NCBI GenBank assembly: GCA_033580375.1
Contig: GCA_033580375.1_4527.1
DNA length: 64,000 nt
Strand: one strand, 5' to 3'
Source: a phage
Below the pieces are notes generated by a model. It had not been told where the DNA came from and searched no databases. It saw only the letters and a list, made by a program, of their open reading frames with translations. Each line of letters begins with the position of its first letter. Within the stretch, counting starts at the first letter, position 1. Positions 14,824 to 62,265 of the stretch are shown here, piece after piece. The translations under genes and the position numbers were made by a program.

Positions 14824-14852
14824 ATAATATCACGTTTGAAGCAAAAGTAAAC
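14824..14852 (-). promoter_or_regulatory. T4 early-type sigma70 promoter (GTTTAC-17 nt-TATTAT on minus strand) upstream of motA
   Basis: Minus strand reads GTTTACttttgcttcaaacgtgaTATTAT about 38 nt upstream of motA ATG. Confidence 0.5.
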
Positions 14853-15144: not shown

Positions 15145-15173
15145 ATAATATCACGTTTGAAGCACATGTAAAC
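15145..15173 (-). promoter_or_regulatory. T4 early-type promoter, near-duplicate of the motA promoter
   Basis: Same GTTTAC-17-TATTAT module and leader (agacattttatttctccaa) as at 14781-14852. Confidence 0.5.
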
Positions 15174-17683: not shown

Positions 17684-17933
17684 TTTGTGTTCCTCATGTT
17701 TCAGTAAGACTACTATACTATAATCCTACCGTGATGTAAACAATTAAATTACATTAAAATATGTTAAAGCCAACCATGTTCCAGTGAACGAACATGCAAT
17801 GTAAAAAACCGTATCACAAATTGTTTTTAGTACAATAAGAAGTGCATTTTTCATAAGTACCTCAATGCAATTGAAAATATTATACAAATCATAGGGATAC
17901 TAAGCAACCATATTCCGATCCACATTTTAGAGC

Positions 17934-27406: not shown

Positions 27407-27465
27407 ATTATTCTCCTCTGGTTGATATGGTTATAATATCAAAACCAGAGGAGAAGTAAACAACT

Positions 27466-28970: not shown

Positions 28971-29000
28971 ATTATACTCCAACCATCCTTGGTTGTAAAC
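28971..29000 (-). promoter_or_regulatory. T4 early-type promoter (GTTTACA-18-TATAAT, minus strand)
   Basis: Minus strand: GTTTACAaccaaggatggttggagTATAAT; spacer nearly identical to promoter at 28413-28442. Confidence 0.6.
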
Positions 29001-29692: not shown

Positions 29693-31006
29693 TCAAATAA
29701 AATGGACGTCAAAACGACCACGAGTTGTGCCGACATACAATAGTTGTTTAGCTAATTCTGAATCGGCATAATGGATACACGGTGTATAAACAAAGGCCGT
29801 GTCAACAGACATACCCTGAGCCTTATGGAAGGTTGATACTGGTAGTGCCTTCACCTTAGTGAACATACGTTTAGCATCCCAGAATTCACTCCATGGAGCT
29901 TTACCACCTTTATTCCAGAATTTGTATGTTTCTGCGGTCTTAGCCAAAAACAAATTGAATTTATAAAGCTCTTCTTCGGAAGAAATAACCTTTATATCCT
30001 CGCGGACGTATTCTTCATCATCCCCATATGTTTCTACTGTAAGATTCCAGTATCGTATCATATATTCGCCTGAAACACCACGTGCTTTAACGAATGTAGA
30101 CGTTTCTACAGCATCTCGAATACGAACGAATTGCCCGTTATTGAAAAGCATTTCGGTCATATTTTTGCCATCTAGCTTATATGTCTTAGTAAATGGCTCT
30201 TGTAGAACAATGACCTCGTCTTTAATAAATGGTTTTTCTGTTTCAAGAAGTTTTCGGCGAATAATTGAATTCAACTTGTCAACCGACTTATTTGTGAATG
30301 CCATCATTCGATTTTCGAAAAGGTCTTCAGGAGTTTTAACGACATTAAAATAGTTCATCATATACGATTTAAGGTCTGTATATCCATGAACACCATGTCC
30401 GTCAACTACTTTATCATAAATCCATTTGCCATTACGAATATCAGTCGCAACATCAATAATTGGTGCATTGCTACGTTTAACTTCTGTAAGGTTGCATTGC
30501 ACGAAGTCTTTGTGAGTGAAGAAAGGACTTAGATACGCAGTGGATTCGCCTGGGTCTACAGGTCGAATCTGACATCGGTCACCAATTCCAATTACTGTGC
30601 ACCATTTAGGGATACTAGCTAACATTATTTTAAACAGAGAACGGTCACACATTGATGCTTCATCAAATAACAGTACACGACACAAGGCTAAGTCGGGAAC
30701 CTTTTTCTGTTCAAACAATACGTTTTCTTCGTATGTGGTTGGGTTGATTTTAAGAATGCTATGAATGGTTGATGCTTCTTGTCCGGCAAGTTTGCTTAGA
30801 ACCTTTTTAGCAGCGTGTGTTGGTGCTGCTAAAATAATACCTGATTCTCCAGAAGAAATAAGGGCTTCAACGATGAATCTAGTAAGGGTTGTTTTACCTG
30901 TACCAGCAGGCCCATTAATAGTTACATGATGTTTCTTTTCTTTAATAGCGTTCATAACAACGTTGAAGGCGTTTTTCTGGCCGTCAGTCAAATCATCAAA
31001 TGTCAT
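29693..31006 (-). CDS. dda: SF1B DNA helicase Dda
   Basis: 437 aa (T4 Dda 439 aa); MTFDDLT.GQKNAF, Walker A GPAGTGKTT, helicase motifs. Confidence 0.9.
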   Translation of the reverse strand: MTFDDLTDGQKNAFNVVMNAIKEKKHHVTINGPAGTGKTTLTRFIVEALISSGESGIILAAPTHAAKKVLSKLAGQEASTIHSILKINPTTYEENVLFEQKKVPDLALCRVLLFDEASMCDRSLFKIMLASIPKWCTVIGIGDRCQIRPVDPGESTAYLSPFFTHKDFVQCNLTEVKRSNAPIIDVATDIRNGKWIYDKVVDGHGVHGYTDLKSYMMNYFNVVKTPEDLFENRMMAFTNKSVDKLNSIIRRKLLETEKPFIKDEVIVLQEPFTKTYKLDGKNMTEMLFNNGQFVRIRDAVETSTFVKARGVSGEYMIRYWNLTVETYGDDEEYVREDIKVISSEEELYKFNLFLAKTAETYKFWNKGGKAPWSEFWDAKRMFTKVKALPVSTFHKAQGMSVDTAFVYTPCIHYADSELAKQLLYVGTTRGRFDVHFI

Positions 31007-31314
31007 CGTAAAGTCCCTGCAATTGGAATACTAACAATACGGCCTGTGTCCAGGATTCGTTGATATAATCTTTGCGTCTCCGCATCTAGTTTAATGTGTT
31101 TCATTTCAAGCTTATTAAACCAGAACTTACGCGGAGTTTCGACCATTCTTAGAACTCCCATTTTTAAATCTGTTTTATACTGTGTTTTCAAAGTATCGAA
31201 AACTTTATCTGCAATATCCTTTCTAAAAAATACTGCAGGACGATGCTCATCAAGTGGAACCGGGACAGTAAATCCTTCCATATCTCGATAAACTATTGCA
31301 TATACATAAACCAT
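31003..31314 (-). CDS. hypothetical protein (dda.1 position)
   Basis: 103-aa track ORF overlapping dda start by 4 nt. Confidence 0.45.
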   Translation of the reverse strand: MVYVYAIVYRDMEGFTVPVPLDEHRPAVFFRKDIADKVFDTLKTQYKTDLKMGVLRMVETPRKFWFNKLEMKHIKLDAETQRLYQRILDTGRIVSIPIAGTLR

Positions 31315-31316
31315 AA

Positions 31317-32063
31317 TTAACCTTTAATTAGTTGGAATAATGATGCGCTAAGTGGTAAGCCACGTTTCAATTTTAATTTACCAATGAAACCAATCTTTTC
31401 AAAACGTTGCAAACCTTGGATAACTTTATCATATGTATCGAAAAGCGATTCAGCGTCAGTTAATTTAGTTTTAGTTTTCCAGTCAGAGCCTTTAAGAAGA
31501 ACGTTGAGTTTAGTAAGTTCATGGCCTTCTGCTTGATGTGAGCCATTAATGCGTGCCTTCAAAGCAACAATTCTAAGTTTAGATTCGTTAGATAAAGGTT
31601 GATTTTTCATCATGTTAGCCATATGCTTAACACGATTTTCACGTTTTGCTCGGATTTTTAAAATAGTACCATAAACCTTTTTAATTTGGGCCCATTTCTT
31701 CTCATCAAGATTAAGTTTCTCTACTTTACGGACAGAAGGATTAGCGATACGTCTTGCAATGGCATCACGTTTCTCAATAAGTTCTTCTAATGTTAAATCA
31801 GAACGAGCCGTGTTATATTTTTTCTTAACTGGGATAACATTACCTTTAATGTAGCCGATATCGTTATCAAAACGTTCTAAGGATAATTTCTCACCTTCAA
31901 CAGAGTTATTGAAAGATTCACCTGAGTAAGCGCAGACCTTTTGATCAAGAATGTTTTTAAGGTAATTAAAGTCTAAGTTAAAATCCTTAGAGCGTCTCTT
32001 CGCAGAAGCTCTGGTGTGGTCAAGACGACGATTGATTTTGTTAATTTTATTATTTGATAACAT
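31317..32063 (-). CDS. hypothetical basic protein (Srd-like by position and size)
   Basis: 248 aa, lysine/arginine rich; T4 srd lies after dda.1. Positional guess. Confidence 0.35.
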   Translation of the reverse strand: MLSNNKINKINRRLDHTRASAKRRSKDFNLDFNYLKNILDQKVCAYSGESFNNSVEGEKLSLERFDNDIGYIKGNVIPVKKKYNTARSDLTLEELIEKRDAIARRIANPSVRKVEKLNLDEKKWAQIKKVYGTILKIRAKRENRVKHMANMMKNQPLSNESKLRIVALKARINGSHQAEGHELTKLNVLLKGSDWKTKTKLTDAESLFDTYDKVIQGLQRFEKIGFIGKLKLKRGLPLSASLFQLIKG

Positions 32064-32215
32064 AATATTTTCCTCTGTCTTACGGACGTTAGGTCATTTA
32101 GCTGATAAGCTTATAATATCATGCCCTCAGGCAGTGTACACTCTTTTTTCATAAAATGCTTTAATTTTTTATGTGTTATAATGGTTCTGAGTTCCATCCG
32201 GTTATTCCAATCCAG

Positions 32216-32824
32216 TCAGTAACTGACAATAGTCAGATTCCAGATTGTATAATTTCCGTCTTGAATAATAGAATCTACACGCAGTGTAGTCCCTATAGGG
32301 AGCATAAATTCACATTCGTCAGATATAAGTCTAGCATTAGACCGTCTTGTCGCTTCAGGGAAAGCTCCATTGAACTCACAAGACGGCGCAGCCAGAATCA
32401 TATTAAGCATATGTTCACGGAAGTTGAAAGCAAATGGTGCATCTTTGATGCAGAACATATTAAATGTTCCGTAAAAATTATACGAAGCGAAGTTACGTGC
32501 TACACCGAACACCGGGCTGAAGCTCATTACTCTATCAAATTTAATAATACTACCAACGCCTTTATCATCAAGTGTGGCCATAGTTTTCTTAGAGATTCCA
32601 CGATACATTGTCTCAGGAACAGAAGACGACCAATTTCTACGAACAATTGCACTTAAATCTTGTTGGATGCTATCAGGCTTGTTTTCCATACACTGCCATA
32701 GTACACTTTGTTCAATGTCGCTGAATTGCTCATCGATTTTGTACTGAAGCATATCTTGATAATCTGGACATTGAGCACGTCGAACCATTTCCTCAATTTC
32801 ACATTCATTATACGGCATAAACAT
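32216..32824 (-). CDS. ADP-ribosyltransferase (ModA/ModB-like)
   Basis: 202 aa; R-S-E triad motifs visible: MYRGIS (Arg), MSFSPV (S-x-S), SDECEFMLP (catalytic Glu-x-Glu); position matches T4 modA/modB. Confidence 0.65.
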   Translation of the reverse strand: MFMPYNECEIEEMVRRAQCPDYQDMLQYKIDEQFSDIEQSVLWQCMENKPDSIQQDLSAIVRRNWSSSVPETMYRGISKKTMATLDDKGVGSIIKFDRVMSFSPVFGVARNFASYNFYGTFNMFCIKDAPFAFNFREHMLNMILAAPSCEFNGAFPEATRRSNARLISDECEFMLPIGTTLRVDSIIQDGNYTIWNLTIVSY

Positions 32825-33232
32825 TTTGGTTTCTCCTATGGTTGATAAAGGTATAGTATCATCATCGGAAGAGTTTGTACACTAAAAATTCAACATTTTC
32901 AAATGAATGATTTTGTATAATCGAGATAAAGGGATATATTCTAAGTCTTCAATTTCCACAATCTCAAATCTAGAGATACTTGAGACCATGTACTCTTATT
33001 CAGATTGACATGTCATGATAGACCTCCATTTAAAGATAAGCCTATCATAACACGAAAGGAGGGAATGTAAACTACTTTTTAAGCTTTCCTACTAAAGGAC
33101 CGTCAGGCCCAGGTTGTTCTAACATGAATGGTGATGCTTTAAGAAGCAATGCCAACCCTTTCACCATTCGATACCATATCTCAAAGTCCTTTTTCTTGGT
33201 TTCCACTAAGAATTGCTCTTTCAAATGCTCTT

Positions 33233-33421
33233 TCATTTCCAAGGACTCCACGGTGGTGGGTCGTCATAATAAGAGGCTAGGTCTTTCAGGACTTCTAATG
33301 GTAAACTAAAACCATGACGTTGTATAATACTATCAATTTCATTGACAAGTTCACCACGTTGTTCTTTAGGAGCCTTGACTTCAGGCTCATCAAACATACT
33401 CATCAAGTCCATATTATTCAC
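33233..33421 (-). CDS. hypothetical protein
   Basis: 62-aa track ORF. Confidence 0.35.
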   Translation of the reverse strand: MNNMDLMSMFDEPEVKAPKEQRGELVNEIDSIIQRHGFSLPLEVLKDLASYYDDPPPWSPWK

Positions 33422-33878
33422 CGAGATAAAAACTAGCCGGTTCAGAGAATGTTTCTAGTGCTACACCTTTTGTCTTAAAAAATTTCCAAATAGCTCGTTG
33501 CAAATGGATTAAATCTGCTAATGATGTAATAAAGTATTTTTTGGCAAAATACTTATGGTCTCGCTTTTCAAACAGGTCTAAACGCTTTTCAGGATTCACA
33601 TAAACAGCATTTTCTGTAGATTCGTACCCTAAATCCTTTATGCCTTCTTCAAGACTAAATGGAGAATTTTTAGAATGAGTAATAGCTCCAACTCGCTCTA
33701 CACGAATTTTGTAACCTTTAGGAATCTGCAATTTACAGAATTCTTCTACGATATATTGCGGATTATTTAGACTTTTGTTAATGAGAATAGCTATTTCTAG
33801 TGGAGTCTTATCTTCTACTGGTATATGTTTAAATGACTTGGCTTCAAGCAAATACATTTTAAATAACATAGCATCCAT
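33414..33878 (-). CDS. hypothetical protein
   Basis: 154-aa track ORF. Confidence 0.45.
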   Translation of the reverse strand: MDAMLFKMYLLEAKSFKHIPVEDKTPLEIAILINKSLNNPQYIVEEFCKLQIPKGYKIRVERVGAITHSKNSPFSLEEGIKDLGYESTENAVYVNPEKRLDLFEKRDHKYFAKKYFITSLADLIHLQRAIWKFFKTKGVALETFSEPASFYLGE

Positions 33879-34596: not shown

Positions 34597-34833
34597 TTAA
34601 CCACTTACTGGTGTAGGGGTAAACATTGTAGCGTTCTTAGTACGCCAATCTTCTGCGCTTGACACTACCGTAGTGTAAGCAGCTTTTTCAGATGGGAAAG
34701 TCTGATAATGAGCATCAGCAATTCGGTGCTCATTTGAGTAAATCTCAAACGGAACCGAAACTTCCATACCTTTAACTTCTTTGCCTTCACCAGCAGGATG
34801 CGTAAAGGTTTTGATGTTTACATAACCACCCAT
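34597..34833 (-). CDS. soc: Small outer capsid protein Soc
   Basis: 78 aa; GYVNIKTF...HYQTFPSEKAAY.TV matches remembered T4 Soc. Confidence 0.85.
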   Translation of the reverse strand: MGGYVNIKTFTHPAGEGKEVKGMEVSVPFEIYSNEHRIADAHYQTFPSEKAAYTTVVSSAEDWRTKNATMFTPTPVSG

Positions 34834-34878: not shown

Positions 34879-35415
34879 TTAGTACCCATTATCCTGACGT
34901 TCAAAGTTGTGTTGGTTTTTCAAGTAGTAAAGTTTAAAGATTTCTTCAGCCGAAAGACCTAGACCCTGGAACATATTTAGAACGAAATGCAGAATATCAA
35001 TCATTTCAAATTTAATTTCAAGTTGGTCTTCAGGAGACAGTTCATCGATACGACGATTTCGATATTCAGCATGTTGTGCTTTCCAAGGCTTCCATACACT
35101 GCTGGCAGCTTTTTCACCATTGCTCATACCACCAAGTGAAGTCAGCAGTTCACGGAATTCATCATCAATATAATCTTTCTGATTACGCAGCCAATCAACA
35201 ACATCGCCAGCAGTGACCAATTCATCAGGATGTTTGTTATGTTCAGGCTTGTCATTTGCCAGACGAACCTGTAAAGATTTCTGCATATCAAGCATTACCT
35301 GCAGTGGGTCTTTATCTTCGTGAATCAGAGCATTAAAATAAGCTTCTTCTGCTTTATCAACACCAGAAATAAGTTGTGAACATTCATTAAAGTGTGCCAT
35401 TATTTTTCCTTTCAA
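34879..35415 (-). CDS. 56: dCTPase/dCTP pyrophosphatase gp56 (MazG-like)
   Basis: 178 aa (T4 gp56 171 aa); position between soc and primase. Confidence 0.8.
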   Translation of the reverse strand: MKGKIMAHFNECSQLISGVDKAEEAYFNALIHEDKDPLQVMLDMQKSLQVRLANDKPEHNKHPDELVTAGDVVDWLRNQKDYIDDEFRELLTSLGGMSNGEKAASSVWKPWKAQHAEYRNRRIDELSPEDQLEIKFEMIDILHFVLNMFQGLGLSAEEIFKLYYLKNQHNFERQDNGY

Positions 35416-39693: not shown

Positions 39694-39748
39694 TTTGTTC
39701 TCCAGTAGTTGATATGTCTATAATAACACAACTACTGGAGAAGTAAAC

Positions 39749-40152: not shown

Positions 40153-40182
40153 ATCATATCATGCCTAGAGGAAGATGTAAAC
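40153..40182 (-). promoter_or_regulatory. T4 early-type promoter (GTTTACA-18-TATGAT, minus strand)
   Basis: Minus strand GTTTACAtcttcctctaggcatgaTATGAT about 30 nt upstream of 40123 ATG, directly after the gene 41 terminator hairpin. Confidence 0.5.
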
Positions 40183-62040: not shown

Positions 62041-62265
62041 TTAAATTTTCCAGTTACCGTTTTCATCAATAAATTTAATCCAGTCATTTACTGACCACTT
62101 AGTTGTATCGCCTTTTGGAGCAGAATTTAAAGTGTAGAACCCTTGCTTAAAAAGCCAGCGTTTGATATTCATAATTTCCTCAACTGTAACGATAACATTC
62201 GTTAGCTTTACGTTTGGCTTCAGTATGAGAAGTATTATAATCATACTCTTCTTTACTGTAAACAT
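62041..62265 (-). CDS. hypothetical protein
   Basis: 74-aa track ORF. Confidence 0.35.
   Translation of the reverse strand: MFTVKKSMIIILLILKPNVKLTNVIVTVEEIMNIKRWLFKQGFYTLNSAPKGDTTKWSVNDWIKFIDENGNWKI

Follow-up and report, generated by a model that had tools for sequence, protein, structure and literature searches.

The window analysed here is a 64,000-nucleotide stretch of phage DNA (GenBank assembly GCA_033580375.1, contig GCA_033580375.1_4527.1), in which the locus under study lies between the genes mrh and srd (Table 1). All genes of this locus are on the minus strand, and judging from its database matches the source is a T4 relative of the RB69 group (Mosigvirus-like). Megablast placed the window in this group, which comprises Mosigvirus and the phiE142 'Carettavirus', and found 154 GenBank records matching the 1.5-kb locus at 90–98% identity. 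Over 24 kb the best matches are ESh27, phiE142 and phiC120 (97.4–97.7%); the window phage thus appears close to deposited phages yet identical to none of them. The phiE142 record is described as a 'complete genome' of 121,442 bp and has its own genus, Carettavirus, but, as with the ~168-kb Mosigviruses, it shows 97.6% identity to the window over 24 kb, and it may represent an incomplete or rearranged assembly.

The order of genes, modA.2 - [ORF020c] - modB - modA - srd - dda.1 - dda, is shared with RB69 and T4, except that the RB69 group has an additional gene of 54 aa (ORF020c) between modA.2 and modB. The C-terminus of the modA.2 orthologue (...DPPPWSPWK) resembles the end of T4 ModA.2. The region 31317-33878 is strongly mosaic among RB69-group phages: the nearest neighbours switch between the 54-aa gene, the remnant of modB described below, modA and srd within ~2.5 kb, and modA itself occurs in at least three haplotypes, ~4–7% apart, among the RB69-group phages compared. 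Two annotations in this neighbourhood deserve a comment. The mrh gene of RB69 is annotated as two CDSs (RB69p023 and RB69p022; RB69 locus 1182-1647), while in the window and other relatives it is one intact gene, which suggests that RB69 may itself carry a disrupted mrh. The ModA.2-like protein (59–62 aa) is labelled [quoted passage not shown] in ESh15, ESh27, ST2, CAU_ECP01 and mogra; in these RAST- or PATRIC-annotated phages the label is apparently an error of name propagation via the symbol modA, which also denotes the bacterial molybdate-binding protein.

Table 1. Features of the mod locus and its surroundings, with further early-promoter matches (positions in the window)
Feature	Position	Strand	Evidence or remark
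gp56 dCTPase	34879-35415	-	ORF list, Pfam
soc	34597-34833	-	ORF list, Pfam
several small ORFs	between soc and mrh	-	ORF list
mrh (154 aa)	33414-33878	-	Pfam T4_MRH, E 3e-38
modA.2 orthologue, 62-aa ORF	33233-33421	-	phrog_1647, E 4e-26; RB69 annotation modA.2
conserved small gene, 54 aa, RB69ORF020c family	33072-33236	-	phrog_5790, E 7e-23
T4-type early promoter of modB, orphaned, GTTTAC-17-(TGt)TATGAT	33044-33072	-	sequence, promoter scan
orphaned modB Shine-Dalgarno, GGAGG	33023-33027	-	6 nt before ATG 33016-33014
modB pseudogene stump, 135 bp	32882-33016	-	alignment with intact genes, translation, phrog_26695
deletion junction, single repeat copy (AATCTGAAT here)	32998-33006	-	alignment
premature stop TAA, codon 7 of the stump	32996-32998	-	32998 C>T; relatives aligned all have CAA
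spacer, modB stop to modA start, 57 bp	32825-32881	-	conserved in all relatives aligned
weak promoter-like TGTACA-17-TACTAT, putative activity	32853-32881	-	below the scanner's threshold
modA Shine-Dalgarno, AGGAG	32833-32837	-	sequence
Mod-type ADP-ribosyltransferase, 202 aa, positional orthologue of RB69/T4 modA	32216-32824	-	ORF, phrog_832, alignment
srd	31317-32063	-	ORF list, Pfam
dda.1	31003-31314	-	Pfam Phage_Y01A
dda	29693-31006	-	ORF list, Pfam
seven further GTTTAC-N16-18-TATNAT matches	14824-14852, 15145-15173, 27433-27461, 28971-29000, 39720-39748, 40153-40182, 62234-62263	-	

A previous sequence-only reading of this DNA had described a single Mod-type ADP-ribosyltransferase of 202 aa with an intact R-S-E triad, and our analysis agrees with it on the open reading frame, the family and the catalytic residues. 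The protein matches phrog_832 "RNA polymerase ADP-ribosylase" (E 1.6e-38) and is 99% identical to ModA of RB69; in BLASTP comparisons with the T4 enzymes it obtains 110 bits (E 4e-35) against ModB and 71 bits (E 3e-20) against ModA. Alignment to T4 ModA and ModB places its catalytic motifs at R75 (YRG), S101 (SFS) and E170-C-E172, in the same columns as R73, S99 and E171-Q-E173 of T4 ModB and R72, S96 and E163-Q-E165 of T4 ModA. These positions follow from our alignment taken together with the report that the R-S-EXE motif is common to both T4 Mod enzymes and that mutation of R73 inactivates T4 ModB (PMC10468400). Based on the homology and the motifs, we predict that the 202-aa protein is a Mod-type, Arg-specific mono-ADP-ribosyltransferase. 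Recognition of the Mod paralogues required the PHROGs collection; Pfam models were insufficient, giving no ADP-ribosyltransferase match for either paralogue and only a chance match to MukF_M, and a PDB sequence search with the surviving Mod protein returned no relative. The 152-bp spacer between modA and srd (32064-32215, minus strand) contains a promoter-like TGTACA-16-TATTAT with TG at 32140-32113, and its flank (AAAGCATTTT...) is similar to the spacer that precedes srd in T4, where GTTTAC-N18-TATAGT is found. An ORF of 28 aa in the modA-srd spacer of the window (32111-32197) has no PHROG match.

Upstream of the 202-aa gene the same reading had seen a segment of ~400 bp poor in ORFs. This holds for the gap 32825-33071 but not for the remaining 165 bp, which encode a conserved protein of 54 aa, overlooked because it falls just below the 60-aa cut-off used. 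The ATG of the 54-aa gene overlaps the stop codon of the upstream modA.2 orthologue (ATGA), its frame is open in 11/11 related sequences, with the only indels being of 12 bp and hence multiples of three, and its pN/pS ratio is 0.30–0.46 among 11 aligned genomes. Relatives annotate it as a CDS, RB69ORF020c. It is an ordinary conserved early gene, separate from the modB remnant. A conserved small protein in the segment had been named as a finding that would speak against a degraded gene; it accounts for the 165 bp only, and 135 bp of the segment belong to the remnant. The impression of an unusual gap in a tightly packed genome was also correct, as the 247 non-coding bp at 32825-33071 form one of the two largest gaps in the window, where the median is 39 bp. 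The other gap of ~250 bp (17684-17933, minus strand) contains no ORF of 45 aa or more by the same count, but does contain short hydrophobic frames, such as a 28-aa MSSKMWIGIWLLSIPMICIIFSIALRYL whose ATG overlaps the stop codon of the upstream gene, as well as a 47-aa frame starting with TTG; these frames may represent unannotated small membrane proteins.

The early-promoter-like GTTTAC-17-TATGAT that had been noticed in the segment is present, with a TGn extended -10 element and an A-rich AAGCTTAAAAAGTA preceding GTTTAC. It combines all features of a T4-type early promoter, namely GTTTAC at -35, a 17-bp spacer, TGn, a -10 hexamer close to TATAAT and an A-rich upstream part, in line with the published consensus (PMC1524935, PMC2988021), of which GTTTAC at -36 to -31 is the signature (PMC1524935). 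The pattern GTTTAC-N16-18-TATNAT occurs eight times in the window, always on the minus strand, versus 0.3 occurrences expected by chance. Two of the other matches, at 14824 and 15145, have near-identical spacers, (T/A)T(T/G)TGCTTCAAACGTGA, pointing to duplication of a promoter cassette. The promoter at the mod locus is conserved in all relatives aligned and is homologous to the promoter upstream of modB in T4, also GTTTAC-17-TATGAT. The likeness extends downstream: the Shine-Dalgarno arrangement is that of T4 modB, GGAGGctatcATG, and the entire layout is shared, with an A-rich run, GTTTAC, 17 nt, TATGAT, ~20 nt and GGAGG-(t)ctatc-ATG.

A strong early promoter followed by ~210 nt devoid of a long ORF could in principle serve a small non-coding RNA or a structured regulatory element, which the sequence-only reading had offered as an alternative. 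Rfam searches, however, found nothing at E<=1 in 31900-33600 (a chance snoRNA match lies elsewhere) and no match at the gathering score in the whole window, and the 221-nt region from the promoter to modA folds no better than its shuffled versions (z = +0.98; 168 of 200 shuffles folded as well). There is no terminator-like site between the promoter and modA, and the sequence is fully accounted for as a coding remnant plus the normal modB-modA spacer. We therefore regard an RNA element as exceedingly improbable.

What is missing behind the promoter becomes clear from the relatives. In O157 typing phage 3, RB69 (where it is annotated as 'modB', RB69p019), LF82-1, CAU_ECP01 and ST2, a gene of 193 aa lies between the 54-aa and the 202-aa genes, with an intact ORF in 5/5 genomes translated; its product matches both phrog_832 (E 6e-38) and phrog_26695 (E 4e-41). 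About 147 of the 154 related GenBank records have roughly 447 bp extra at the modB spot. Among the 30 matches listed, 25 consist of two pieces spanning ~1,940–1,970 bp, versus 1,501 bp in the window, and the relatives with such two-piece matches have two adjacent ADP-ribosylase genes. Alignment of the window to its intact relatives reveals one clean gap of 447 bp, bounded by the 9-bp direct repeat AATCTGAAC. In each of the five intact genes the two copies of this repeat lie at a distance of exactly 447 bp, and the pair is the joint-longest or second-longest direct repeat of the modB-position gene. The missing part corresponds to 149 codons and is in frame, removing residues 7–155 from the 193-aa product of the 582-bp gene. 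The remaining stump joins the first six codons of modB to the last 38 and reads MTCQSE*EYMVSSISRFEIVEIEDLEYIPLSRLYKIIHLKMLNF*.

The deleted block includes the catalytic R63 and the S89 motif, so that the stump retains only E-x-E and the C-terminal strand(s). A search of the segment for remnants of ModA- or ModB-type genes, which had been suggested as a check, was successful: the 35-aa frame that is left gives a match (E 1.3e-15) to the C-terminus of phrog_26695, an ADP-ribosyltransferase family. In addition, the stump has acquired a nonsense mutation, and with TAA at codon 7 at most a six-residue peptide could be translated from the old start. The stump is thus homologous to a gene that relatives keep intact at this locus, and it has lost essential parts, as expected of a pseudogene. 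It is predicted to have no enzymatic function, and it could not encode an ADP-ribosyltransferase fold. Comparison with RB69 modB and its Mosigvirus orthologues summarizes the situation: the locus, promoter, Shine-Dalgarno sequence and start codon are the same, and the first six and last 38 codons are 95–100% identical in DNA to the window, but the orthologues keep codons 7–155, whereas the window lacks them and carries the codon-7 TAA.

Based on these results, we propose, with a probability of about 0.93, that the 247-bp segment represents the scar that a 447-bp deletion left when the positional orthologue of modB was recently lost. The suspicion that a second mod gene had been degraded or deleted is thereby borne out, with a loss between 9-bp repeats and a nonsense codon on top of it. 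We also considered the opposite polarity, in which the short form would be ancestral and the 447 bp an insertion, and rejected it, as the full-length protein can be aligned with T4 ModB from one end to the other and two of the three catalytic motifs are absent from the stump. The junction suggests the following course of events. An in-frame deletion of 447 bp would have arisen between the two copies of AATCTGAAC inside the 582-bp gene, by replication slippage or by microhomology-mediated illegitimate recombination, leaving behind the early promoter, the Shine-Dalgarno sequence, the first six codons and the last 38 codons of modB; a later C>T change in the lineage of the window phage would have made codon 7 a TAA. 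In T4, short direct repeats are known end points of spontaneous deletions, the classical rII deletions being an example. Such deletions resemble the present case in that the end points lie in a direct repeat (of 9 bp here) of which one copy is retained; the rII-type deletions, however, are laboratory mutants, whereas the deletion described here is a natural allele circulating in wild isolates. A literature search on T4 deletions at short direct repeats found nothing relevant.

The window is not the only carrier. A 121-nt query across the junction could not separate deleted from intact genomes, as two-piece matches outranked one-piece matches, but a 44-nt query with a strict E-value did, and it retrieved seven records only, corresponding to five phages: phiE142, phiC120, ESh15, ESh27 and G2285, from Mexico, the USA and Germany. 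None of the seven is 100% identical to the window across the junction, and the codon-7 TAA is private to the window. Searches for the junction in IMG/VR returned only phiE142 itself, and in the JGI metagenomes it was not found. The other carriers bear on the trivial explanation that the missing 447 bp are an artefact of assembly or sequencing. Short repeats do flank the deletion, and assemblers and polymerases can slip at such places; yet a 9-bp repeat is far too short for an assembly collapse, and the window has further private substitutions inside its stump. Since five phages from three countries, each sequenced independently, have exactly the same junction, we conclude that it is a real allele and that the probability of an artefact is practically negligible.

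In phiE142 (YP_010088506), phiC120, ESh15 and ESh27, the junction is identical to that of the window and the stump is annotated as a 44-aa CDS, named 'ADP-ribosylase', 'ribosyltransferase' or hypothetical protein; in G2285, again with the identical junction, it is a frameshifted CDS of 52 aa. The allele itself is therefore already in GenBank, auto-annotated as a 44-aa "ADP-ribosylase", although our literature searches found no description of it as a deletion of modB. The 44-aa ORF is open in 4/6 carriers (phiE142, phiC120, ESh15 and ESh27); only the window has the nonsense codon and a G>S replacement. Relative to the intact genes, the stump of the window carries Q>stop, G>S and D>I, those of phiE142 and phiC120 carry D>I, that of ESh27 carries D>I and R>K, and that of G2285 has two 1-bp insertions, one of which frameshifts the ORF, together with S>F; the ESh15 stump has no amino-acid change. 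The D>I replacement results from a dinucleotide change (GA>AT, i.e. GAC>ATC), which is shared by four carriers and occurs in none of about 130 records with an intact gene. By comparison, 105 of 138 Mosigvirus-level records show no change in the last 38 residues. Disruptive or non-synonymous changes are thus seen in 5/6 remnants, although these changes represent a small number of events, some of them inherited in common; with this reservation they would fit relaxed constraint on a decaying pseudogene.

These data also allow us to judge whether the leftover could have been put to a new use, either as a functional micro-protein made from the C-terminal fragment of 35–44 aa or as a six-codon mini-ORF or leader that regulates modA. 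The deletion is in frame and the promoter, Shine-Dalgarno sequence and ATG are all kept; a small peptide could be made in the four phages with an open 44-aa ORF, of which ESh15 has kept it without an amino-acid change, and in the window an internal ATG opens the 35-aa frame. On the other hand, the window frame is cut by TAA at codon 7, and the internal ATG has AAGAG only 3 nt upstream, which is poor Shine-Dalgarno spacing. In G2285 the ORF is frameshifted, the D>I replacement in four carriers is non-conservative and affects a position invariant in the intact genes, and the fragment is without two of the three catalytic motifs. Such an exaptation is in our view very unlikely, and we keep to the interpretation of the segment as a deletion scar.

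The history of the deleted allele can be traced in part. The left flank of the window is closest to LF82-1, a phage with the intact gene (7 differences in 600 bp), whereas ESh15 and ESh27 have a modA haplotype ~6% different from that of the window, and G2285 has the common left-flank haplotype. The deletion allele is found in at least three flanking haplotype combinations. Possession of the same ATC marker by the window, phiE142, phiC120 and ESh27 speaks for descent from one deletion allele, and recombination would later have carried this allele into different backgrounds. In the case of ESh15 and G2285, the sequences fit equally with shared descent and with an independent deletion at the same repeats, and the variety of flanking haplotypes likewise fits either heavy recombination or independent deletions. 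A bolder proposal is that loss of the modB-position gene is recurrent and/or positively selected in RB69-group phages, the repeats being a deletion hot spot or the null allele spreading by recombination into various backgrounds; we consider this unlikely. If it were true, the enzyme might impose a cost or trigger a host defence in some hosts, with its role being taken over by the ModB-like survivor.

The assignment of the lost gene as the positional orthologue of T4 modB, and of the survivor as that of modA, follows from the match in the promoter/Shine-Dalgarno layout and in gene order. The T4 modB-modA tandem resembles the RB69-group locus in gene order, in the architecture of the early promoter upstream of modB and in the R-S-EXE motifs, but the proteins share only ~30–37% identity with their RB69-group counterparts; modB and modA overlap by 4 bp in T4, whereas the RB69 group has the 57-bp spacer. 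Nor is the equivalent T4 region equally poor in ORFs, a finding that would have weakened the case for a lost gene: there, only 67 bp separate modA.2 from modB, which runs into modA. Similarity scores do not follow position. The lost paralogue obtains 91 bits against T4 ModB and 44 bits against T4 ModA, and both RB69-group paralogues score higher to T4 ModB than to T4 ModA; for the lost gene, a biochemical activity can therefore be assigned from synteny only. The survivor looks mosaic relative to T4, with an N-terminal FSDIEQSVLWQCME near-identical to FTDFEQSVLWQCME of T4 ModB and with APFAFNFREH and SDECEFMLPIG resembling APMVFNFQEY and SDEQEVMIPAG of T4 ModA, its overall score being higher against ModB. 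Counts of matches per record were not used to enumerate the paralogues across T4-like phages, as LF82-7 and CAU_ECP01, which have two genes, show only one place.

EF-Tu and trigger factor are among the targets of T4 ModB. This enzyme also modifies ribosomal protein S1 and others, and RNAylates them, while T4 ModA modifies Arg265 of the RNA polymerase alpha subunit (PMC2988021, PMC10468400). As the survivor occupies the position of modA but scores higher to ModB, target specificity is not transferable by name, and the target specificities of RB69-group proteins named ModA and ModB may differ from those of their T4 namesakes.

The orphaned promoter, being near consensus, would probably fire immediately after infection. 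Transcription would start near 33037 and presumably read through the stump into modA, crossing the six-codon mini-ORF on the way, which would yield an additional modA transcript with a leader of ~210 nt beside any initiation within the 57-bp spacer. Polarity caused by an early nonsense codon is possible in principle (PMC2988021), and so it could occur at the stump, but only a short stretch is left untranslated. Instead of two Mod enzymes the phage would depend on a single one, plus Alt if this is present elsewhere in its genome.

The event itself, a microhomology-mediated deletion that left a remnant of a paralogous accessory gene, is of a known and ordinary kind, and the practical value of the finding is modest. 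New are the exact anatomy of the deletion, the private nonsense mutation and the recognition of a few wild RB69-group phages as natural nulls at the modB position. One consequence is a correction of annotation: what several GenBank phages list as 44-aa "ADP-ribosylase" CDSs are stumps and not enzymes. Another is that viable wild RB69-group phages exist without the modB-position enzyme. In T4, inactivation of ModB lowers the burst size 4- to 12-fold and delays lysis by ~20 min (PMC10468400). The carriers of the deletion and their near-isogenic intact relatives such as LF82-1 form a natural pair of knock-out and wild type, which could be used to ask whether the ModB-type activity is dispensable in these phages or is covered by the remaining paralogue.
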